Assembly: GCA_964600985.1 (NCBI GenBank)
Contig: CAZRJR010000002.1
Coordinates: forward strand, 104,867 to 168,866
Reading direction: 5' to 3'
DNA length: 64,000 bases
Source of the DNA: an uncultured Candidatus Saccharibacteria bacterium
GTDB taxonomy: Bacteria > Patescibacteriota > Saccharimonadia > CAILAD01 > JADZBC01
The notes under the pieces were generated by a model, which saw only the letters and a program-made list of their open reading frames with translations, was not told the origin of the DNA and did no database searches. This document shows, piece by piece, positions 682-64,000 of the stretch; positions within the stretch are counted from its first letter, which is position 1, and every line of letters begins with the position of its first letter. The translations under genes and the position numbers were made by a program.

Positions 682-1785
682 GTGAACATGAATCCACAAG
701 ACCCTAGTAATCCTAACCTCAATCCCGCTCCAGCTCAGCCGCCACCCGCTGTAGCACCAGTGCAGCCTAGTGCTCCACCAGCCCCGGCAATGCCACCAGT
801 TACGCCTCCGCCTGTTGCACCGGCACCTTCGACAGCTGCACCTGCCGCTCCTGCGCCGGTTCCAACTCCGCCTCCACCAATGGCTACACCAGCTTCAGTC
901 GATGTAGCTACCGCAGAACCTGCCCCTATTCGGCCTGTAGAAATACCACCCACAGCTGAGCCAGCGCAACAACAATTACCGCCCACGCCACCTGGCTCAG
1001 CCCCACCAGCTGCTGAAATGCAAGTTCCACCACACCTTAATGGTGGCGTACCAGATCCAAGCTTAGCACCGATCCCCAACGAAGCACCCGAGAAAAAGCC
1101 GCGTTCTAAAAAGCCCTTTATTGTCATGGCGATAATTATTGCCGTATTGGCTATAGCCGGCGGAGTATGGGCGCTTCTGGGCATGCCCGGGTTGCCTAAG
1201 AATGACACGACTTCTAATGAGAATTCGGCCATGGTGGGGGATGCTGCCAATAGTTCTTCGTCAACAACTGATCCTAATGACCCCACGGCAACCGGCGATG
1301 GCTCCGAGGTATCAGGTGGGCAAACTACGGCTACTGGTCCTACCACGGTAGTGGGTGGAGTAAGTTACGCGACTGTTTTTAAATCGTGCTACAGTTTTCA
1401 ATTGCCCGCGCCAAACAATATTCCCACGGACACCCTATGTAGTATTAATGCGAACTATGGCACAGGATTAACGCGTCGGATTATCATTGCTCCAAATACC
1501 ACAAATTGGTCATCGATCGAAGCGGCTTTGGCCGAGGTAAAGAGTGCGTATAAACTGATTTCTCCTGTGGATCGCAAGATCAAGCTCGCTGGTAGTGACG
1601 CTTACGAAACCACCTACACTACGAGTAGCGGCCAAAAGGCAGTCAAGATAATCGTGAGCGCTGTGGGCAAGGGCTACAAGCTCGCTGGTGCGGCTATAAC
1701 TGGGTTTGAAATAAACCTACCTGCCAATACCGAGGCCGAAAAGGCCGCGGTAGTCCAGCTCGAAAAAAGTTGGGCCTGGAAATAA
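682..1785 (+). CDS. Membrane-anchored protein: Pro/Ala-rich N-terminal region, one TM helix, Ser/Thr linker and a roughly 150-aa C-terminal domain
   Basis: About 145 aa of low-complexity P/A-rich sequence is followed by KKPRSKKP and the TM FIVMAIIIAVLAIAGGVWALL. The C-terminal domain contains CYSF..LP..TDTLCSINA and ends LEKSWAWK. It is a paralog of the next gene. Confidence 0.6.
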   Translation: MNMNPQDPSNPNLNPAPAQPPPAVAPVQPSAPPAPAMPPVTPPPVAPAPSTAAPAAPAPVPTPPPPMATPASVDVATAEPAPIRPVEIPPTAEPAQQQLPPTPPGSAPPAAEMQVPPHLNGGVPDPSLAPIPNEAPEKKPRSKKPFIVMAIIIAVLAIAGGVWALLGMPGLPKNDTTSNENSAMVGDAANSSSSTTDPNDPTATGDGSEVSGGQTTATGPTTVVGGVSYATVFKSCYSFQLPAPNNIPTDTLCSINANYGTGLTRRIIIAPNTTNWSSIEAALAEVKSAYKLISPVDRKIKLAGSDAYETTYTTSSGQKAVKIIVSAVGKGYKLAGAAITGFEINLPANTEAEKAAVVQLEKSWAWK

Positions 1786-1870
1786 CTAGGCCTGAAGCTT
1801 CCAACTGAGCATAAGTCTTTTGTGCTGCATGGGTAAAATTGCTATACTTAGGCGTATATACTAGGTATTT

Positions 1871-3469
1871 ATGCCCCCACAAGACCAGCCCTTAGGACCC
1901 AGTGCAGCACCACCGCCCGCCAATACGTCGGCGGTTGATTTGAGTGCGCAGATTCCGCCTAGTTATGCGCCGCCACTAGCTGGCAGTGCGCCGGTTGCAG
2001 CACCTGGCACCATGTCACCACCACCATCCGCACCGAGCACAAGCACGGTCCTGCAAGACGCCCTAAATGCCCAGTTAACTCCACCAGCTACTCCGATAGC
2101 CCATGCGCCCACTCCAGCCTCACCGTCGGCTGCCACTCCAACTCCCGGGTCGGCTTTGGATGCGCACCTAGAGGCCGATGAACCTGACCCGTTAGCTGGA
2201 TTTACTGATCCTGCTCTGCGAGCAGCAACTACCGAGGCACACGGTGGTGATGAGCCACTTATGCCTCAGCCAACCAGTTTGTTGGCACCCGGAGGCGGTA
2301 GTGGGAGCCTACCGGTTGCGCCTGTTAGCGCGCCTGCCGTTACATCAATTACGCCCCCTCCGCCAGTTGACACGAATCCAGCTTTGACCAATCCAGTGGT
2401 TGCTCCTATGCCAACTGCCGATGTCCAGCCGCTGCCACCAACGCCGGCAGCGGCAGAATCCTACGCCGCTACGCAAGGCGTAGCGGCGGCTCCACTCGCT
2501 AGCTCTCTTCCAAGTGCGCCCGAGCCAATGCCACCCAACCCTCTTGAACAAGACCCAGTTGCTGCTCCACCCGCCCCTGGTCCTACACCGACGCCAGTTG
2601 AGCCCGACTTGCCCCCAGTACCAGTATCTACACCTCCGCCGTCCGACGACCAGCCCTTAGGAATCGATTTGGTAACCGGTGTGCCAGTTGATCGCTTACC
2701 GAAGTTGCAGCCTCAATCTGCGCCTGTCGAAACTGGTGCTCAACCACTCCAAAACATGCTGGAGGATCCGCAGCTTGCTAGTCTTGACTCGCTCGACCCT
2801 TATTCCGATCCGCTCCTTATGGCATCGGAGGGCGCCACGGCGGGTGAAGAGAGTGGAGGCAATAGTATTTTGTTCTCGGTGGCTGTTGGTGCCGCGGTAT
2901 TGGTGTTTGGAATTATCGTACTAGCTTTAGTATTGGGTAAAAAGACCACCACTGTGGTAAATACTGACGATTTATCTGGAGGAGCTACTCAGAGTTCAAT
3001 TAAGCCGACTATTTCCGTGCCCGACGGATACGTAGCGATTGCTAAGGAATGCTATGAATTCGGCATACCAACCGACAACACCGTGTCCACGAGCGACACC
3101 AGTTGTAGTATCGATGCTTCGTTTGGGGCGCAAGAGGTTAGTACGATCGCGGTTGTACCAAGTATTGAGTCTAGCGATAATCTTGATAGTGCGGTGGATG
3201 CGGCCAAGCAAACGGCGGGCATTAGCGCGAGTAGTATAACTGGTACGCGCGATATTAAGCTTGGCGAGGAAGATGCCAAGGAGATCGTGTATAACGGTGG
3301 CACGAAGGAAAAACCAGATACCAAAACCCTCATTGTGGTTCTAGCTAAGGATGATAAGCATAAGCAAGGCGAGGACGTAATTACTGCCTATGCCATAACG
3401 ATGTCGAGTGGAGATACCTTTACCCAAGATGCAGTTAAGACGCTTGAAGCTAGCTGGAAGTGGCGTTAA
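1871..3469 (+). CDS. Paralogous membrane-anchored protein with a longer Pro/Ala-rich region
   Basis: It has the same architecture as the previous gene. The TM is ILFSVAVGAAVLVFGIIVLALVL. The C-terminal domain carries CYEFGIP..TSDTSCSIDA and ends LEASWKWR, matching CYSF..CSINA..LEKSWAWK in the upstream gene. Confidence 0.6.
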   Translation: MPPQDQPLGPSAAPPPANTSAVDLSAQIPPSYAPPLAGSAPVAAPGTMSPPPSAPSTSTVLQDALNAQLTPPATPIAHAPTPASPSAATPTPGSALDAHLEADEPDPLAGFTDPALRAATTEAHGGDEPLMPQPTSLLAPGGGSGSLPVAPVSAPAVTSITPPPPVDTNPALTNPVVAPMPTADVQPLPPTPAAAESYAATQGVAAAPLASSLPSAPEPMPPNPLEQDPVAAPPAPGPTPTPVEPDLPPVPVSTPPPSDDQPLGIDLVTGVPVDRLPKLQPQSAPVETGAQPLQNMLEDPQLASLDSLDPYSDPLLMASEGATAGEESGGNSILFSVAVGAAVLVFGIIVLALVLGKKTTTVVNTDDLSGGATQSSIKPTISVPDGYVAIAKECYEFGIPTDNTVSTSDTSCSIDASFGAQEVSTIAVVPSIESSDNLDSAVDAAKQTAGISASSITGTRDIKLGEEDAKEIVYNGGTKEKPDTKTLIVVLAKDDKHKQGEDVITAYAITMSSGDTFTQDAVKTLEASWKWR

Positions 3470-39545: not shown

Positions 39546-42500
39546 ATGAGCGACATAAATACTCCCAACAATTCTACAGTAAACCCTCCCAAGCAAGAAC
39601 AAGGAGCTACTACTAATGTTGCGCCGCTTGAGCCCAAGGGTGCTAAGACAAATGTAGGGAAGCCAGTTCGCCACTGGGGCAAAAGAATCGCACTAATTCT
39701 ACTAATTCTACCTATTGTGGCGGCTGGCGTTTATGGTGTTCAGCACTGGCTCAAAGTCAGTAAAACCTATAAGGTAGGTAGTCACTCATTTACTTATGGC
39801 GACGTGGAGGCTAGGGCGGCTAAGATGAAGAAGGGATTCTCTGGCAAGGTAACTTCTCAGGCACAGGACCAGATGCTCTCGGATGCCAAAGACAAGCTAG
39901 CCTTACTGGCTGGGCTAAAGTCAGAGGCAGACAAGCGAAACATTCCCTACGATAATGCCTCCGTCGACAATTATATGAAAACCCGATATGACGAAAAGGG
40001 AGGCAAGAGCGCTTACTTTGCTTATACGAAGTCAGACTTTGGCTGGAACGAGCAAGATACTTACAACTTTGGCACAACACTGTATTTGCAATATAAGCTA
40101 GAGCCAGAGCTAATAGCCCATAAACGATTTACCGTTATATATGTGCGCTGGGATGGTATAAAACTTTTTGATCCTAAGAACTACGACACAGTCTACAAGC
40201 AGCGAGAAGCAGAGCTGACCAATAAATACCTGCCAATGTTGAAGCAAAACGTTCCACTCGAAGGTTTGCGCCAGAGAGTAGAGGTGTCCGATACAGCCGA
40301 TCAAGAGACTATAAGGCGTGTATATGCGGCTACTAAAAACGCGCCGATTCAAATCCAGGACTTCGACCCTACAGGCGTGACGTTCACCAACTACAATGAG
40401 GGTGAAGATGTTATGACGCGTCTTAATGCAATGAAGCAACCCCTAGGCGTAGTCGGTCCATTCAAGGGGGCAGACGGCAGGCTTTTGATCGCTCGGCTTG
40501 AAAGTGCACGAGGCGGCAAGTACTATGGTTGGGATGAATTTACCAAGCAGGCTAAACAGTCCGCAGGGTTATCTCAGAATTCCGTAAACGTAGATATTGG
40601 TATGTTGAGCAAACGATTTGCCAGGCAGCTTGATGGAATATTTTCGCCTGCACAAAAAGCTGAGGCAGCTCAATCTGCTATTAACTGCCTGGATCACCCG
40701 GTTACTTATAATTTTAGCGTATTTAGTACTGCAAGTGGTGACCGCATTTGGTCGCCTACCTTTACTATGGGTGGAGGCAGCCAGAGGCAAATTGCCCCCA
40801 ATAATTCAGGGGAATTATACTACTGTGATCCAGCGCCCTACAGGGCGGCAGGCTTTTCTGTAGGCCAGCCAGATGCAAATGGATTTACCGGGGTAGGGAT
40901 CTTTAAGACGAGTAGCCTGGGCACACTCACGTTTAATGTCGACTGCTACGGGGGTGACTGGGGTATTGGGCCCAAGCCGCCAAGCCTAGGTTCTGGCTGG
41001 ACATTCAAGTATCAAAATACGTCTGGTTCATATGGCAACAATATGACTATTAATACCAACTTTTACTATGCTCCAGTAACGCAAAACAATCCACCACCGC
41101 CGCCCCCCCCACCTCCACCATCAGGGAATAACCCCTACTGTACGTTTACAAACGCCTACAGGGTAGATGCAACTAGATGGGCTGTGTCGTGGAGGAGCTA
41201 TAACTACTATGGAGCTGCCTTGAGTGGAAGCTTGTACAACTCAGTAACGGGTAATACGGACTCGGGGGTTGGTTTAAGCGAGAACGACCATCGGGTGCGA
41301 GTTGCTGACGGTCAGACTGGAACCATAAGCTTTACCATGTACAATAATGGCCAGCCAGTACCTGGTGTTACATGTTCAATACCTGTTGGGCAAACTGGTT
41401 CAAATCCGCCACCTACTAATCCACCCCCTCCAACACCCACTGCATATTGGAGTTGTGCAGTTACAGCTGATGGTACGAGCCCAATTGCTTCCCCTGCAAC
41501 GCCGGCCAATATATCTAAAACTATCAACAGGGGGGATACCCTTACGTTGAAAGTGGCTCCTGTACTTCGTTTGCTAAGCGATGATACGATCGTGCCTGGC
41601 GGTATGCCTCTTCTGCAATGGGATTACTTTGTAGGGAGCTTCGGTACACCCGTGTACACTAGCCCAGACCCCACTAGAGTGGGCGGGAATCCAGATCCAT
41701 TCGCCACGTATACGAGCACCCCACAAGTTAGTGCTAACTACTTTATATTCCCTCATAATCCACAAGAAATAAGTGTTTATGGTGGGTGTAGTGTAGTTCT
41801 TCAGGTAAACACTCCCGCAGCCCCTACCTATGGACCACTGCTTAAAACTACCAAAGGAGATGTGACGGCGGCAGGGTTCCTGGATAGTGCCAACGCCATG
41901 ATTCGTACTCAGAAGAACAACCCTCCACGAACTGCTGTTGCTACAGCGGCCGACTACTTGGTGATTGGTAGGTTTGTGGATTACTTTTGCAGTGCAGGCG
42001 GTTTTAACCTCGGTATGCCAGGTACATGTGTGCCCGGGGACTCCTTGTATAGCTCGGGTTACGCAGTTAGTAGAGAGGGATTCGCTAATATTGGCGACAA
42101 CGGTCCGTTTGCCACATCTAACGACCCGGTCATAAAGAATGTGCGTACCATAATGAATAGTGCCTCTACAGATATTAATGCTTGTTCGGCTGCAAAACCC
42201 TACTTTAAATATGCAGACCTAGGCCCTCAGCTGGCAGGTGGTAACTTCGGCTCAACCCAAAGCTGCGCGGTAATTGGTACCCAGCCAAGCGGTAACTTCG
42301 GTGCTCATACGTTCACGCAGGGTAGAGCCACCATATTCATTGACGGTGACGTTACTATCACCGGGGATAACAAAGTGGTGTATTCTGGTGGACCGTATGA
42401 CTCTGTAAATAAGATACCGAATGTTGGCCTCATAGTCAGGGGTAACGTCACGATCGACAAGAGTGTAGTCCAGCTAGATATGTCTATTTATGCCACTGGT

Positions 42501-42776
42501 AAGATTAAGACCTGCTCAGTTTACCCGGATGCTACCGGTACTCAGTGTAATCAACAGCTCAAAGTCCGAGGTATCTTAGCGGCAGCGCATGGCTTTGAGT
42601 TTGGTCGCATCATCCCAGGTAATCCTGCTAACGCCGCCGATCAGGCTAAGCCAGCCGAACTCATAGTGGGCTCTGGTTTAGTAGATGCCTTCCCGCCACC
42701 GGGGTTCATAGATATGTCTACTAGCTCGGCCACAGGAGTAAAAGTACTAAGTAACGAAGCGGGGCCAAGGTTCTAG
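39546..42776 (+). CDS. Large (1076-aa) signal-anchored surface protein with poly-Pro linkers, located directly upstream of the T4P locus
   Basis: The N-terminal TM is IALILLILPIVAAGVYGV. It has P10 and PPTNPPPPTP tracts and many Cys, Gly and Tyr residues. No catalytic motifs were recognised. Confidence 0.6.
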   Translation: MSDINTPNNSTVNPPKQEQGATTNVAPLEPKGAKTNVGKPVRHWGKRIALILLILPIVAAGVYGVQHWLKVSKTYKVGSHSFTYGDVEARAAKMKKGFSGKVTSQAQDQMLSDAKDKLALLAGLKSEADKRNIPYDNASVDNYMKTRYDEKGGKSAYFAYTKSDFGWNEQDTYNFGTTLYLQYKLEPELIAHKRFTVIYVRWDGIKLFDPKNYDTVYKQREAELTNKYLPMLKQNVPLEGLRQRVEVSDTADQETIRRVYAATKNAPIQIQDFDPTGVTFTNYNEGEDVMTRLNAMKQPLGVVGPFKGADGRLLIARLESARGGKYYGWDEFTKQAKQSAGLSQNSVNVDIGMLSKRFARQLDGIFSPAQKAEAAQSAINCLDHPVTYNFSVFSTASGDRIWSPTFTMGGGSQRQIAPNNSGELYYCDPAPYRAAGFSVGQPDANGFTGVGIFKTSSLGTLTFNVDCYGGDWGIGPKPPSLGSGWTFKYQNTSGSYGNNMTINTNFYYAPVTQNNPPPPPPPPPPSGNNPYCTFTNAYRVDATRWAVSWRSYNYYGAALSGSLYNSVTGNTDSGVGLSENDHRVRVADGQTGTISFTMYNNGQPVPGVTCSIPVGQTGSNPPPTNPPPPTPTAYWSCAVTADGTSPIASPATPANISKTINRGDTLTLKVAPVLRLLSDDTIVPGGMPLLQWDYFVGSFGTPVYTSPDPTRVGGNPDPFATYTSTPQVSANYFIFPHNPQEISVYGGCSVVLQVNTPAAPTYGPLLKTTKGDVTAAGFLDSANAMIRTQKNNPPRTAVATAADYLVIGRFVDYFCSAGGFNLGMPGTCVPGDSLYSSGYAVSREGFANIGDNGPFATSNDPVIKNVRTIMNSASTDINACSAAKPYFKYADLGPQLAGGNFGSTQSCAVIGTQPSGNFGAHTFTQGRATIFIDGDVTITGDNKVVYSGGPYDSVNKIPNVGLIVRGNVTIDKSVVQLDMSIYATGKIKTCSVYPDATGTQCNQQLKVRGILAAAHGFEFGRIIPGNPANAADQAKPAELIVGSGLVDAFPPPGFIDMSTSSATGVKVLSNEAGPRF

Positions 42777-54661: not shown

Positions 54662-55573
54662 CTAACTGTTATCGGAGTGGAACTTTTTGTGCACGTCCTT
54701 TAGGTGTGGATCGGTTAGGTGGGTATATACCTGGGTAGTGGCGATGTTGGAATGACCAAGCAGCCCTTGTACGCTACGTAGATCCGCACCGTTCATGAGT
54801 AAGTCGGTGGCGAAGCTGTGGCGCAATGTATGGGGAGTAACGTGCTTGGTTATGCCGGCTTGCTTGGCGTACTTTTCTACAATCCGTTGTACACTACGTG
54901 TGGTTAGGCGGGTATACTCTCCACCTTCAAGCTCACTTTTGCTGCCACTGTAGTGTATAAAGAGCGGGTCAAAGTCATCTTTGCGTGCCTTTAGGTATTC
55001 CGAGAGCATGTAGTTCGCCGAGTCGCTAATATATACCGGCCGATCCTTCTGGCCCTTACCACGAATGCTGAATTCGCCTCGTTCAAGGTTGATGCTATTG
55101 CGATTGAGCGCTACCAGCTCGGATACTCGCAAGCCACTTGAAAACAATAGGGCTAGTATGGCTCGGTCGCGCAAGCCGGTGTTGGTATCGGTTTTTACCG
55201 CTTCCATGAGCCGGTGTACCTCGTCTTTGTCCAGGAAGCTTACTTGAGGCCGCTTGGCTTGGGCTAGTTCAATTCTATCTGGGCTGAGGCTCTTAATATC
55301 GCGTTTGGCCAGGTAGCGCAAAAAGCTACGCATAGCTATAAGGTGGTAATTTTGGGTGGTGCGACTTATGGTGCGGCCGTCCTCGCCTACGTAGCGATTC
55401 AACCACTGCCGCCACTTACTCATGAGCTCAGAGGTAATGTTGCTTACCTTTATCTCGCCAGCAAACTCATCGAAGCGGTTCAGGTAGTGGGAATAGTTCT
55501 CGATGGTTTTAAGACTTCGTCCACGTTCAACCTCGAGGTATTCCAGAAAGTCACTCATATAATCACTAAACAT
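54662..55573 (-). CDS. xerC: Tyrosine site-specific recombinase XerC/XerD
   Basis: It has an N-terminal SAM-like domain, the RHSFAT box and the catalytic motif LLGHSNIATTQVYTH with Tyr. Confidence 0.88.
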   Translation of the reverse strand: MFSDYMSDFLEYLEVERGRSLKTIENYSHYLNRFDEFAGEIKVSNITSELMSKWRQWLNRYVGEDGRTISRTTQNYHLIAMRSFLRYLAKRDIKSLSPDRIELAQAKRPQVSFLDKDEVHRLMEAVKTDTNTGLRDRAILALLFSSGLRVSELVALNRNSINLERGEFSIRGKGQKDRPVYISDSANYMLSEYLKARKDDFDPLFIHYSGSKSELEGGEYTRLTTRSVQRIVEKYAKQAGITKHVTPHTLRHSFATDLLMNGADLRSVQGLLGHSNIATTQVYTHLTDPHLKDVHKKFHSDNS

Positions 55574-58033: not shown

Positions 58034-58675
58034 ATGGAACCAGATCTAAAGAAGTTTGAACAGATTCGTAGAGAAAAGTCACTGGTGCTTATTAAGCCTG
58101 ATGCGGTTATGCGTAAGTTAGTCGGTGAGATTATGACCCGTTTTGAGCGTAAAGGACTTAAGATTGTGGCGCTCAAGATGGTCCAACCAACCAAGAGTCA
58201 TGTAGAGCAACACTATACCGACAGTGAGGAATGGTTGGTAGGGAGCGGCACTAATACCTACAATAGCTATGTAGAAAAGGGTATTAAGCCGCCCCTAGAT
58301 TCTCCGCGAGAGTTTGGCCTCAATACTCGCCGTAAGCTTATGGAATCATTGGGTGCCGGTCCTGTTGTAGCCATGATACTAGAAGGCCCGCATGTGATCG
58401 AGATTGTGCGTAAAATGCGTGGTGCTACCAGCCCGTTGCAGGCAGATGTGGGCACAATTGGTTTTGATTACTCGCTCGAGTCCTATGAGCTTTCGGACGC
58501 GGGCGATTGGGCGATTAAGAACATTATCCATGCCAGTGATTCGCCCGAGAACGCTCAGCGTGAGATCAACATTTGGTTCGACGAAGCTGACATTGTAGAC
58601 TATCACGCGGCTGAAGACGAAGTGTTGTTCACCAAAGATTGGTATGGCAAGAAGTCCAAGCCAGCCTCCGAATAA
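58034..58675 (+). CDS. ndk: Nucleoside diphosphate kinase with insertions and a C-terminal extension
   Basis: It has the motifs LVLIKPDAV, RKLVGEIMTRFERKGLKIVALK and NIIHASDS (catalytic His). It encodes 213 aa against about 140 for typical Ndk. Confidence 0.8.
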   Translation: MEPDLKKFEQIRREKSLVLIKPDAVMRKLVGEIMTRFERKGLKIVALKMVQPTKSHVEQHYTDSEEWLVGSGTNTYNSYVEKGIKPPLDSPREFGLNTRRKLMESLGAGPVVAMILEGPHVIEIVRKMRGATSPLQADVGTIGFDYSLESYELSDAGDWAIKNIIHASDSPENAQREINIWFDEADIVDYHAAEDEVLFTKDWYGKKSKPASE

Positions 58676-58683
58676 CTAAAAGA

Positions 58684-58715
58684 CGCAACCCCGAGTGACC
58701 TCGGGGTTTTCGATT
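58684..58715 (+). terminator. Intrinsic terminator after ndk
   Basis: AACCCCGAG tgacc TCGGGGTT TTCGATTATT. Confidence 0.7.
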
Positions 58716-58956
58716 ATTCTGCGGGACCGGTCCAATGCCGTAATCCCGCTACTTGCTGATGGTTCGGATTAGTATCCGTACGAGCCGACCTATAGCAAAG
58801 CCGACTCGCCACGACCAACTTGTCATGTATGGCCCGGCTGCAAGCCGGTCAGTCGCTCGCCACTCATGGAGAAGATGCGTCGGAGGATGCACGAGGCAAA
58901 CTCTGTCACGATTACTCCCAGCAGAGCTTTGACCAGCGTTTCGATCAGCGCGTGGA

Positions 58957-59190
58957 TCATCGTGCTGCCCGCTTCAAGAAGAGCCCGTGGGCAATCCTAC
59001 GACTAACACCCACAGTGCCTACGGCAGCCAGAGCGCTGTAGAGAGCAGTCCTTTCAGCATCCGATCGGCTGATCTTGTTCTTGTGCCCAAAGGGATCGTA
59101 GCCCCTTGCTTCATAAGAGAACTCGATCACCACCAAGGTGGCTAGGGCCGCAACTGCGGCTTTGCCAACCAACTTGAACACCTTCTTCAT
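58957..59190 (-). CDS. Small protein with an N-terminal hydrophobic segment, in a high-GC patch
   Basis: The product is MKKVFKLVGKAAVAALATLVVI... and AAGGGGAAA lies upstream. Confidence 0.3.
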   Translation of the reverse strand: MKKVFKLVGKAAVAALATLVVIEFSYEARGYDPFGHKNKISRSDAERTALYSALAAVGTVGVSRRIAHGLFLKRAAR

Positions 59191-59400
59191 AGTTTCCCCT
59201 TAAGGACAGTGTAATACGGATTTCGCACCCACACATGAGCAGATTATTGAATAGCTGCATGCATTTTGCAAGCGTAAGGGTGTAAAAAGTGCTGGTACGC
59301 CATCTGTCTGAGATTTGGAACTTATCACCTAAACTCACAATAATATAATTATGAACTTGGGTGATGCTGGAATGACGCTCCAGCAGACGGCCCATGCGGG

Positions 59401-59712
59401 CTAGTGGTCTTTGCCACATTCGTAGCGGATGATGGTGATCAGCTTGTATGTGGACATCCCAAGCAGGTTCCGGAGCCACTGGAGCCTGTAGGGCACCTTC
59501 TCGAGCTTTGCCTTGCCCGTAGGGCCTGGGCAACCGCTCGCCTGAGAACGGAATGGTGCTTCGGTTTGTGCCCAAGCACGATCTCTCTCGTGGGGCTCTG
59601 CGAACTCGGTCTCGCGCCAGATCTTGTTGCTTGCTGCACGGATGTGAGGGCAAGACTGGAGGCACTGACCCTCGGTTGACGAGATGCAGACAGGCTGGCT
59701 GGTGTCGGCCAA
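59401..59712 (-). CDS. Small Cys-containing protein in a high-GC patch
   Basis: AAGGAG-N7-ATG. It encodes 103 aa with 5 Cys. Confidence 0.3.
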   Translation of the reverse strand: MADTSQPVCISSTEGQCLQSCPHIRAASNKIWRETEFAEPHERDRAWAQTEAPFRSQASGCPGPTGKAKLEKVPYRLQWLRNLLGMSTYKLITIIRYECGKDH

Positions 59713-59871
59713 TGGATTCTCCTTCTACTCGGTGGTTATGCCACCATTGGCTAGTCTTCGGAACTTACATATAATACCACTAAAACTTTACAAAAGCAAT
59801 AGAAAGTGATAGTATACACCCACCTTGAAGCCACCCATCTATCCTTAGCCTCACGGCGGGAAGGACATGCA

Positions 59872-60654
59872 ATGAAGAAGCACGCGTTTATCAGTTCGCT
59901 GGACTCCTTCATCGCGAGCGGTCAGCTCACGATGAAGGGCCAGCAGCCTCTCGCCGCTCACTACATCAACTACTTCCGCAAGACGGACATCGCCGCCGAC
60001 CGGAAGTACGACTTCTGGGACATGGAGGCCTACCTGCCGCAGCTGATGCTCGACGGGTTCATGGATCTCCTCAGCTCGGAGGACCACGCCACTGCGCACA
60101 TCCGTGAGCTGCTCGAGATGCAGACCGGCCTCGTGCTCGGAGATCCCTCCAGGATCGGGGCCATCCCGTCAACGGACCAGGTCCTCTGGGTCCAGTCCAT
60201 CGACGGGATGCTGCGAGGAGTAGGCGTCCACGAAGCCACCTGCAGCAAGGTGGAGATGCTCTTCATGGCCGAAGTCCGGATGGTCGAGCTGGCCTTCCGT
60301 AGGTTCGTCCAAGACGTCTTCTCCTCCGGCCTCTTCGAGGTCATCAACGGGGGGATCACGTCGGGCATGAGCGGGACCTTTCAGGACCGGGGGGACACGC
60401 CCACAACCCTGCGGACCTTCGTGACGGCGGGCCGGCTCATGTTCACCTTCGCCTGCGGTGTGGGCAGCCACGAGGAGTCGATCACCTTCGTCGGTACCGA
60501 GGACGATCCGCTCCTTCTCGGGGCAGGTCTGCAGTCGGTCCAGACCGATCTCGCGACGGCGCTGAAGATGATCGATACGGTCAGCACCTGCTGGCCGACG
60601 GACCCCGAGGCGCAGGCCGCGTGCTTCACCCCTGGCGGTGTCGCTGTCGGCTGA
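59872..60654 (+). CDS. Hypothetical protein encoded by a high-GC (about 62%) gene
   Basis: The product is MKKHAFISSLDSF... and GGGAAGGA lies upstream. Codon usage has high GC3, unlike the backbone. No family was recognised. Confidence 0.5.
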   Translation: MKKHAFISSLDSFIASGQLTMKGQQPLAAHYINYFRKTDIAADRKYDFWDMEAYLPQLMLDGFMDLLSSEDHATAHIRELLEMQTGLVLGDPSRIGAIPSTDQVLWVQSIDGMLRGVGVHEATCSKVEMLFMAEVRMVELAFRRFVQDVFSSGLFEVINGGITSGMSGTFQDRGDTPTTLRTFVTAGRLMFTFACGVGSHEESITFVGTEDDPLLLGAGLQSVQTDLATALKMIDTVSTCWPTDPEAQAACFTPGGVAVG

Positions 60655-60838
60655 CGGTTCATGGCATGCAAGAGGAGGGGTGTCTCTGGAGCCAAGAGGC
60701 TCACACCCCAAGCGCGGTTTGCACAGAAATGTGCAGGCCGCCTTTTCATTTGTGCCTATAACATCCGATGGTTCTATATAACATGTGGTCCCGGCAATAA
60801 TTCATAAAGCCAACAGATTGGAAACTGTGGATAAGTGC

Positions 60839-60914
60839 TGGTACCCTGGGAGGGAATCGAACCCCCGACGCTCTCCTTAGGACGGAGACGCTCTATCCAC
60901 TGAGCTACCAGGGC
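60839..60914 (-). tRNA. tRNA-Arg (anticodon CCT), with CCA encoded
   Basis: The minus-strand sequence is GCCCTGG TA GCTC AGTGGATA GAGC G TCTCC GTCCTAA GGAGA GCGTC GGGGG TTCGATT CCCTC CCAGGGT A CCA. The cloverleaf is folded by eye, with a G1-U72 wobble. Confidence 0.75.
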
Positions 60915-60976
60915 GTGTAAGATTAACACCGAGCACTTATTATAGCACTTCGTGCAGACCAAAGACCTAGAGGGGC

Positions 60977-61005
60977 TTGACAAAGAAGCGTAAGCGTTGT
61001 ATTCT
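60977..61005 (+). promoter_or_regulatory. Sigma-70-like promoter for the zinc-ribbon gene
   Basis: TTGACA-17 nt-TATTCT. Confidence 0.4.
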
Positions 61006-61055
61006 GAGGGCGTCCGCATGTACATCTATATCGCAAGATCGAAAGGATAGGAGCT

Positions 61056-61610
61056 ATGCAGTGTCCAAGCTGTGATGCTTCGATTCTAGAGGTCGAAGCA
61101 TTGAATCGGTGTCCAGTCTGTGGTTATCAGTTGGGCGATCCAGATGTGGTGTTCCCGCCCTACTTGGGCGATGGGCAGGTCGGCGAGCCGCCCGACGAGG
61201 ATGACATCTACTTGGAGGAGGTTCCATCGCCCGAGGAGCTCGTAGAGGCTTCGGACCGACACCCGGCCAAGGGCAAGAGTACCAAGGCCAAGAAGCCGCT
61301 CAAGCCTCCGAACTTCTTCCAGTTCCGAGTTCATACGGGTGGCAAGGAAGGCTCCTACTGGGTGCGCAGCAGTGCCAAAACGCCGGCTAGGGATGCCCTT
61401 AGGCCTTGGCTGAAGGGCCAGGGGGTGGTTCTAACCGACCAACTGGGGCACCCAATCAGCAGAATTGCTGACAGCTTGGAGCGGGGCAAAGCCTACCGAA
61501 AGGCAATGCCACTGACCGGCGGTCCACTCGAGGTCATTCCTCAGGGCGCCAGGGGGTACTTGGATGCCTATGGTGATCATCGTGACGATCCCGTGTGGGT
61601 ACAGCTGTAG
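61056..61610 (+). CDS. Hypothetical protein with an N-terminal zinc ribbon, encoded by a high-GC gene
   Basis: It has CPSC...CPVCGYQ and a basic middle region. An AGGAG SD is present. Confidence 0.5.
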   Translation: MQCPSCDASILEVEALNRCPVCGYQLGDPDVVFPPYLGDGQVGEPPDEDDIYLEEVPSPEELVEASDRHPAKGKSTKAKKPLKPPNFFQFRVHTGGKEGSYWVRSSAKTPARDALRPWLKGQGVVLTDQLGHPISRIADSLERGKAYRKAMPLTGGPLEVIPQGARGYLDAYGDHRDDPVWVQL

Positions 61611-61750
61611 CGGACACAAGGGCTGCGTAAGCGCCCTGCCCAGTTTTCTCAGCGCTGAGAAGGCTGGGTTGTCTGTATTATATTATAATGCAAGTCGTAG
61701 TTAAGTAATCTGCAATTATCTGGCATAATCCAAGCATAAGCTGCTACAAT

Positions 61751-63535: not shown

Positions 63536-63660
63536 AGTCAATAACGTTTAGTTTTGGTGTGTACATTTAGACTTAAATGGGTGCGCCGCTTCACCCGAGT
63601 GAGAGGAGGTTATCCTTTCTGTATGGGCGAAACGGCGTGGTGGGTGGTGCTGGTGGTTGG

Positions 63661-63924
63661 CTAGGAGTGGGACTGCTGCGTCGAGCGCTCCTTGATGTGC
63701 CTCTTGACGTACGGATACTCGAGAGCGATGGGGAACGACTTGCGTTCCTCCGGCCGCTCCTTGTTGCGCGTGGGCGCCTGCTTCTTTGGCCTGGTAATCC
63801 ACATCCCGAAGATCAGGACGAAGATGGCGGCCCCAACGCACAACCCCGACTTGATGAGTGTTACGACGTTCATCTGGATCGGCTGCACTTGCTGCTGCGC
63901 TAGCACCATGTAAAAAACGCTCAA
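63661..63924 (-). CDS. Small single-TM protein with a basic tail, in a high-GC patch
   Basis: TM LCVGAAIFVLIFGMWI is followed by TRPKKQAPTRNKERPEERK. Its architecture resembles the 12919-13149 protein. Confidence 0.3.
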   Translation of the reverse strand: MSVFYMVLAQQQVQPIQMNVVTLIKSGLCVGAAIFVLIFGMWITRPKKQAPTRNKERPEERKSFPIALEYPYVKRHIKERSTQQSHS

Positions 63925-64000
63925 ACTACCCCCTTAGAACAGTGTTGTGAGCGAAGCCAAATGATAACACTTTTACTTGTAATTATCAATAACATTCATG

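Follow-up and report, generated by a model that had tools for sequence, protein, structure and literature searches.

The subject of this analysis is a GC-rich range (positions 58720-61650) that surrounds the tRNA-Arg(CCT) gene in a 64,000-nucleotide stretch of DNA from an uncultured Candidatus Saccharibacteria bacterium (contig CAZRJR010000002.1, positions 104,867 to 168,866; hereafter 'the window'). This range is a mosaic and not one island. On balance, it appears to correspond to a tRNA-anchored array of gene cassettes that lacks an integrase, resembles a cis-mobilizable integrated element (CIME) and is exchanged among related bacteria, accompanied by a separate, fast-evolving neighbor gene. 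The array would be anchored at the 3' end of a single tRNA-Arg(CCT) gene, within a clade of Patescibacteria-type genomes, and would be composed of small expression units drawn from a pool of genes rich in G and C at third codon positions (high 'GC3') that moves horizontally between related lineages. The unit next to the tRNA (59287-60844) comprises a 70-nucleotide (nt) non-coding motif, an open reading frame (ORF) of 103 amino acids (aa) and a self-contained cassette encoding a 260-aa orphan protein (termed 'fam260'), and is bounded by an exact 12-base-pair (bp) direct repeat. Because it is bounded by a repeat and harbors no recombinase, this unit looks like a decayed element of the cis-mobilizable type.

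The window as a whole has a GC content of 49.8% (standard deviation (sd) 2.9% across 1-kilobase (kb) windows). The jump in GC around the tRNA, which was the point of departure of the original prediction, is real: the range has a GC content of 57.0%, versus 49.4 ± 1.7% in equal-sized windows elsewhere (maximum 54.7%; z = 4.5), and sliding-window, GC3 and tetranucleotide checks agree. The level of 60-63% that had been ascribed to the entire range was overstated, in that values of 60-64% are confined to 59800-60800 and about 61200-61600; the left third (58720-59750) has 54.6% GC, and the AT-rich, promoter-like gaps at 59200-59400 and 60915-61055 fall to 44% and 46%, respectively. The excess resides almost wholly at third codon positions. 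Compared to a reference GC3 of 0.52 (mean of 69 window ORFs; sd 0.074), the fam260 ORF (59872-60654) displays a GC3 of 0.88 (GC 0.64, GC1 0.60, GC2 0.44), a zinc-ribbon ORF on the 5' side of the tRNA (61056-61610) a GC3 of 0.67, and the three small minus-strand ORFs of the range values of 0.62-0.72. The composition of the range is foreign-looking in other respects as well: its tetranucleotide correlation to the window drops to between -0.02 and 0.21, which is the window minimum (mean 0.635, sd 0.123), and its dinucleotide delta* has a z of about 3. The unrecognizable high-GC3 ORFs that had been described, with Shine-Dalgarno sites (GGAAGGA, AGGAG, GAAGGAG and AAGGGG), are present, and the hypothetical protein given as 261 aa in fact has 260; apart from faint zinc-ribbon matches, the ORFs of 58720-61650 have no match in Pfam, PHROG, PADLOC or NCBIfam, and the tRNA is the only match in Rfam.

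Evidence that the tRNA has served as an integration site, as had been proposed, is found at its 3' end, both in the window and in a series of related loci (designated here by L numbers). The tRNA-Arg(CCT) gene (60839-60914, minus strand), which is indeed the sole tRNA gene of the window, is 100% identical in L001, L005 and L019, and represents the anchor of the array and its putative integration target. A search for a direct repeat matching the tRNA 3' end recovered an exact 12-nt sequence, AAGTGCTGGTAC, that bounds 59287-60844. Its right copy (60833-60844, plus strand) takes 6 nt from the tRNA trailer and 6 nt from the terminus of the tRNA itself, and its left copy (59287-59298, plus strand), at the start of the 70-nt motif, is the proposed distal attachment (att) site; a 12-nt match arose in 81 of 20000 random regions in a Markov simulation (p about 0.004). 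Relatives carry insertion scars, at tRNA-Arg and at tRNA-Gly, in the form of non-coding mini-elements, roughly 150-170 nt in length, that are inserted exactly at tRNA 3' ends and accompanied by a duplicated tRNA end. One such element lies at tRNA-Arg(CCT) in L001 (8975-9125; 16-nt repeat with one mismatch), another at tRNA-Gly(CCC) in L005 (15309-15470; 17-nt exact repeat) and a degenerate copy at tRNA-Arg(CCT) in L019 (about 1680-1837), with further examples in L021 (3743-3890) and L023 (about 130-300). The mini-element contains a T-arm-like segment and has no match in Rfam or IMG/VR; clear 16-17-nt repeats are limited to these mini-elements of relatives. In the window, the tRNA gene is also bracketed by a perfect 9-nt inverted repeat, ATAAGTGCT / AGCACTTAT (60831-60839 and 60932-60940), that is probably the leader-trailer stem of the tRNA precursor, which would explain conservation of the trailer.

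The conserved 70-nt non-coding motif (59293-59367, plus strand), which begins with TGGTAC, occurs once in the window and in one to three copies in related loci, always at cassette boundaries (L019 218-292; L021 2099-2172 and 3893-3967; L022 1516-1590; L023 3566-3643 and within 855-1364). It lies on the 3' side of small ORFs on the minus strand and, at a distance of 70-175 nt, upstream of the next such ORF; its hairpin is stronger as minus-strand RNA (z -4.8), and its role could be that of an att arm, operator or small RNA. The sequence before TGGTAC in the L019 copy is AAGTCC, which matches the trailer at 5 of 6 positions. The right end of the mini-element likewise reads ...TGGTAC, and joins the tRNA in L019 and a copy of the motif in L021, where the motif copy is followed by a 103-aa gene that in L001 is located on the opposite side of fam260. 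Because the same end joins either a tRNA or a motif, TGGTAC is, to judge from these junction sequences, a probable recurrent crossover point, and units appear to stack at the tRNA.

A comparison of gene order demonstrated that the arrangement is not peculiar to this genome. The order xerC, mnmG, ndk, variable genes, fam260, tRNA-Arg, zinc-ribbon gene, bPH and prsA is kept in L001-L003, L005 and L019, while L021 retains the left half of that order (ndk to fam260). The layout is found in at least six related genomes, and is GC-rich in all of them; the recommended check on synteny therefore upheld a conserved position and excluded a recent, private acquisition. Among GTDB species representatives there was one match, to 'Patescibacteria group bacterium UBA910'. 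Within that shared layout, however, the segment on the 3' side of the tRNA has diverged far less than its surroundings: 59756-60854 displays 84-88% nucleotide identity to relatives, versus 70-77% for the flanking mnmG, xerC and prsA genes. Synonymous divergence (dS) is 0.24-0.52 among tRNA-Arg-linked fam260 copies, and 1.4 or more, or saturated, in the flanks. The ratio of nonsynonymous to synonymous divergence (omega) is about 0.3 for fam260 and about 0.05 for the flanks, because nonsynonymous divergence (dN) is similar and dS is lower. At conserved residues, the fraction of identical codons between the window and L001 or L005 is 0.83-0.87, versus an expectation at saturation of 0.57 given the family's own codon usage; the same measure for mnmG is 0.46, versus 0.37 expected. 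Identity in the non-coding cassette sequences is 82-86%, versus 52-72% in other intergenic regions, a degree of conservation for which codon bias cannot account. The cassette tree also conflicts with the flank tree: in prsA and bPH, L001 and L019 form the closest pair (91.6% aa identity in prsA) and the window is the outlier, whereas in fam260 the window and L001 are closest.

Two further loci point to movement of these genes and to exchange of cassette contents. In L007, a fam260 gene adjoins the 3' end of tRNA-Glu(CTC) instead, at equal spacing, with homology restricted to the ORF; the overall divergence of L007 and the window is not comparable, as the sampled DNA has no core gene in common. 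In L023, ORFs have been swapped within a constant expression frame: at 326-882 and 1553-2155 (minus strand), a promoter and a double-hairpin terminator of the type found in the window bracket unrelated orphan ORFs of 151 aa and 143 aa (GC3 0.70 and 0.89, respectively). One of these module copies follows a homologue of the 103-aa gene (83% identity over 510 nt), and all genes located between ndk and the contig end in L023 have a GC3 of 0.66-0.89, versus 0.51-0.53 for ndk and mnmG. More generally, the content between ndk and the tRNA varies among relatives, of which the replaced ORF in L023 is one instance, and the cassette ORFs of relatives have no annotation in Pfam, PHROGs, PADLOC or NCBIfam. 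Horizontal exchange and shuffling of cassettes within the clade are indicated by the low divergence, the tree conflict, the copy at tRNA-Glu in L007 and the swapped ORFs in L023. On the 3' side of the tRNA, the suggestion of horizontal acquisition is thus borne out.

The same cannot be said of the 5' side, and the concept of a single island surrounding the tRNA was abandoned for that reason. The zinc-ribbon unit (60977-61669, plus strand) consists of a promoter (60977-61005), an AGGAG Shine-Dalgarno site, a 184-aa ORF (61056-61610) and a terminator (61638-61669). Homologues with only about 28-30% identity are found at this position in L001, L005 and L019, and a search of 5.8 billion proteins recovered only three homologues. 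The gene is thus a resident one, GC-rich, old at the site and fast-evolving, that is separate from the integrated unit, in which it is not counted because it lies off the integration side of the tRNA.

The fam260 cassette proper (59756-60838, plus strand) is self-contained. A promoter and 5' untranslated region (59756-59871) carry a TTTACA-17 nt-TAGTAT promoter with an upstream TG (59787-59815) and the Shine-Dalgarno sequence GGGAAGGA (59858-59865), and are 83-86% identical to L001 and L005. The ORF (59872-60654) is followed by a spacer (60655-60838; 82% identical to L001 and L005) that contains a hairpin (60677-60709), an intrinsic terminator (60714-60751) and the tRNA 3' trailer. An AlphaFold model of the protein (predicted local distance difference test (pLDDT) 85, predicted template-modeling score (pTM) 0.77) is composed of a helical N-terminal domain of ~160 residues and a C-terminal domain in which a five-stranded beta-sheet is accompanied by helices; a profile search of PDB sequences returned no match. 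A word-indexed search yielded nine relatives, and an exhaustive profile search 275 clusters (50% identity level; E ≤ 1e-3), which are mostly 250-270 aa in length; no recognizable fused domains were found in the longer members. In every low- or mid-GC locus sampled, the family member has a higher GC3 than its neighbors: 0.61-0.69 versus 0.35-0.41 in L006 and L009, 0.85 versus 0.56 in L007, 0.80 versus about 0.5 in L011 and L012, 0.43 versus 0.33 in L014, 0.66 versus 0.50 in L015, and 0.81 versus 0.43-0.54 in L018 (where adjacent islet ORFs have 0.60-0.76). The member in L011 (1767-2561) and L012 (8001-8825) is split over two ORFs by a frameshift or sequencing error, and may be a pseudogene. In L016 and L017 (an 81.6-kb contig of 73.7% GC), a distant member is found among genes that share one orientation, are mostly unannotated and have a GC3 above 0.9; this member was not found in phage or plasmid collections.

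The strongest competing explanation is that these genes have resided vertically at the locus since the clade ancestor, and that processes acting locally (for example, GC-biased gene conversion at a recombination hotspot, or selection on mRNA) have raised GC3 and curbed synonymous change with no integration having occurred. This scenario accords with the synteny in at least six relatives, and with the elevation of GC3 in every low- or mid-GC lineage sampled, which would then be a property of the gene; the zinc-ribbon gene, moreover, is GC-rich yet old and divergent. It nevertheless appears unlikely, in that it must contend with the tree conflict, with the unusual conservation of the non-coding flanks, with an ORF replaced in the same frame in L023 and a gene located at tRNA-Glu in L007, and with the direct repeat at the tRNA end, while genes that are highly expressed are not GC3-rich. 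Translational selection on codon usage was itself considered as a cause of a GC3 of 0.88, and was rejected because the genes for ribosomal proteins S6 and S18, EF-P, SSB and RecA, which tend to be strongly expressed, have ordinary GC3 values of only 0.51-0.59. An overlapping antisense gene was likewise rejected: the antisense ORFs over the 260-aa gene vary in frame and length among relatives, and the long ones arise as a consequence of the high GC3. GC3 may be kept high by repeated transfer from a reservoir richer in GC, or by GC-biased gene conversion at a recombining locus.

If the range is indeed an exchanged array, then site-specific recombination at the TGGTAC core, with a recombinase supplied in trans, would have joined units to the tRNA 3' end, and the contents of these units would later have been reshuffled, including replacement of ORFs within a conserved promoter-terminator frame. 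The likely route would be DNA uptake followed by RecA recombination; the window encodes RecA and an ATPase of the type II/IV secretion family (T2SSE). Whereas composition, synteny, low divergence, tree conflict, repeats, scars and the swapped ORFs are observed, the enzymes of recombination, the direction of transfer and the cause of the GC3 excess are what we infer. The absence of an integrase, which the original prediction had noted, holds for the unit itself, with the caveat that a Xer-type tyrosine recombinase is encoded in its vicinity (54662-55573, minus strand; 254 and 251 bits for XerC and XerD, and 143 bits for the integron-integrase model, with a cut-off of 265). It is the only tyrosine recombinase nearby, but is a conserved, syntenic core gene, and a role for it at this locus is a conjecture.

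Several points weigh against the interpretation of the range as a mobile array. The direct repeat is just 12 nt in length, and its left copy is inside a conserved motif that is possibly merely regulatory. The unit contains no recombinase, and neither a circular form nor an empty site was seen; the sampled relatives were all found via the cassette genes themselves, so that estimates of occupancy are biased toward carriers. The 260-aa family was sampled at eight to ten loci, several of them from the same lineages. The low dS may be attributable in part to strong codon bias, and the GC3 excess has no demonstrated cause. Finally, L023 (1-390) lacks the tRNA-Arg gene expected after the mini-element, and its sequence passes there into unrelated DNA close to the start of the contig, perhaps as the result of a deletion, a rearrangement or the end of an assembly.

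A bolder extension of the exchanged-array interpretation, which we regard as rather doubtful, is that the clade possesses an integron-like platform for gene capture that operates without an integron integrase, and that is made up of fixed promoter-terminator slots in which GC3-rich orphan ORFs are exchanged, the 70-nt att-like motif, tiny elements (roughly 150-170 nt) that target tRNA 3' ends and a Xer-type recombinase acting in trans. Because the motif and the 3' end of tRNA-Arg have the TGGTAC core in common, units would stack at the tRNA. Were such a platform to exist, the GC3 excess of fam260 across unrelated hosts would be the mark of a phylum-wide mobile gene pool with its own composition.

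The original prediction had offered the high-GC actinobacterial host of an episymbiont as one plausible source of the DNA. The GC3 of 0.88 would suit a genome of about 65-70% GC, and one distant fam260 member (P0087) occurs with native composition in a contig of 73.7% GC. That member, however, is the sole high-GC representative found and is only 30% identical, whereas the nearest sampled relatives of the 260-aa protein form GC-rich islets in genomes of 36-52% GC. The amino-acid composition of the family, with a mean G+A+R+P (GARP) fraction of 0.24, is unlike that of high-GC organisms; the zinc-ribbon protein has only its three homologues; the promoter, Shine-Dalgarno and terminator modules are common to the cassettes of this clade; and no matches were found among plasmids (by tblastn), phages or IMG/VR. 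Near homologues thus belong to genomes with low or mid GC, either Patescibacteria-type or of unknown taxon, an actinobacterial source is without support, and we consider an origin in the host improbable.

The 3' ends of tRNA genes are common phage attachment sites, and the location of the unit is in that sense compatible with the remnant of a prophage or phage satellite, as are a single weak structural match in BFVD (A0A1P8DIX0; E 5.7e-4, template-modeling (TM) score 0.41-0.47) and the presence of a serine recombinase and an HNH gene near the distant homologue in L006. Such a remnant is nonetheless very improbable: there are no PHROG matches and no structural or replication genes, tblastn against 50,697 phage records returned no match, and IMG/VR was negative for the protein, the motif and the mini-element. 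The abrupt change in composition, in a genome that is probably metagenome-derived, might also suggest an assembly chimera or contamination, but an independent Logan contig matches 59373-61662 at 100% and identical junctions occur in independent assemblies from several samples, which leaves that explanation with hardly any credibility.

The remaining features of the array lie to the left of the fam260 cassette. A bidirectional hairpin terminator after ndk (58687-58708), with a flank conserved in L001, L021 and L023, marks the left limit of the variable, GC-rich region. It is followed by two overlapping, ATGA-coupled ORFs for small membrane proteins of 77 aa (58957-59190) and 45 aa (58823-58960), both on the minus strand (GC3 0.62 and 0.72, respectively), with an AT-rich, promoter-like site upstream of their region (59271-59243, minus strand). 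This pair is not included between the repeats and may represent an earlier component of the array; the product of 77 aa bears a weak resemblance to an 88-aa product of L005. The 103-aa Cys-containing orphan ORF (59401-59712, minus strand) has a TTG start, a GAAGGAG Shine-Dalgarno site and a GC3 of 0.72. It is fast-evolving, with homologues at 76% and 71% identity; in the comparison with L023, dN/dS is 0.40 and the second codon position is most conserved. Just 3' of this ORF, a hairpin, GCTGGAATGACGCTCCAGC, and its conserved tail (59366-59402) are 97% identical to L005 (6694-6729) and 88% identical to L019.

Additional observations were made in the vicinity. The ndk gene of relatives (L001 3665-4156, L021 256-747) encodes a protein of 163 aa that is 35% identical to the 213-aa product of the window ndk (58034-58675) at the same position, such that a housekeeping gene has apparently been replaced beside the hotspot. 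In the variable region of L001 (5638-6987), there is a gene for an additional factor of the sigma-70 family (449 aa), whose best NCBIfam/PADLOC match is MzaA of the MZA anti-phage system, with a score far below the cut-off. Beyond prsA, near tRNA-Asp, L001 (11894-13312) and L005 (11823-13750) contain a second islet, in which small ORFs on the minus strand are GC-rich and reach a GC3 of 0.81, and the end of the window (63548-64000; 53% GC) may be where this islet starts. A second compositional outlier in the window, by dinucleotide signature and tetranucleotides, is located at 40250-42500, within a 1076-aa ORF (39546-42776).

Episymbiotic ultra-small bacteria possess tiny, streamlined genomes, in which the gain and turnover of accessory genes are poorly known. 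The locus described here provides a concrete, sequence-defined case of such turnover, with a tRNA hotspot, recognizable junctions, and promoter and terminator modules that are reusable. It also introduces an orphan family, comprising about 275 clusters, whose members exceed their neighbors in GC3 in each low- or mid-GC host sampled. Accessory DNA does not usually surpass the core in GC content as it does here, and this reversal raises two questions that are testable with existing data: where the gene pool is located, and whether its high GC content is kept up by biased gene conversion or by repeated transfer. The libraries and literature searched contained no description of modular slots formed by a promoter and a terminator, of the TGGTAC/70-nt motif or of the GC3-rich orphan family.

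Clusters of attC sites lacking integron-integrases (CALINs) are one known arrangement that the locus resembles. As in integron arrays and CALINs, small orphan ORFs are arrayed with a repeated non-coding element at the cassette borders, and cassette content differs between close relatives at one fixed locus. The locus differs from both, however, in that there is no IntI, the nearby recombinase being Xer-like (143 bits versus the 265-bit cut-off); in that promoter-like sites and terminators accompany its individual cassettes, which occur in both orientations; and in that the motif folds as a short hairpin, with no attC-like long imperfect palindrome (no attC covariance model was run). A study of groundwater Patescibacteria found that islands and single transferred genes are common, and that most transfers occur within the phylum (PMC12455944). 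That pattern of within-phylum exchange fits the present locus, although tRNA-anchored mini-cassettes, fam260 and a GC3-rich accessory pool are not described in that study.

The closest counterpart is the CIME, which, together with tandem accretion at the 3' end of tRNA or other genes, was defined for relatives of streptococcal ICEs (integrative and conjugative elements) and IMEs (integrative and mobilizable elements) (PMC5704250). The present unit departs from that model in its size of about 1.5 kb and in its 12-bp repeat with a recurrent 6-bp core; in that no parent ICE, IME or integrase is known for it; in its Patescibacteria-type host, where its mobility is putative; and in the swapping of cassette ORFs within conserved promoter-terminator modules. 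In other respects the two are alike: like a CIME, the unit displays an atypical composition, carries no genes for integration or transfer, and is flanked by a direct repeat, putatively of att type, that includes the end of a gene; its relatives contain tandem units and secondary insertions at the same site; and it ends at a tRNA 3' end (60839), with the same geometry at tRNA-Glu in L007.

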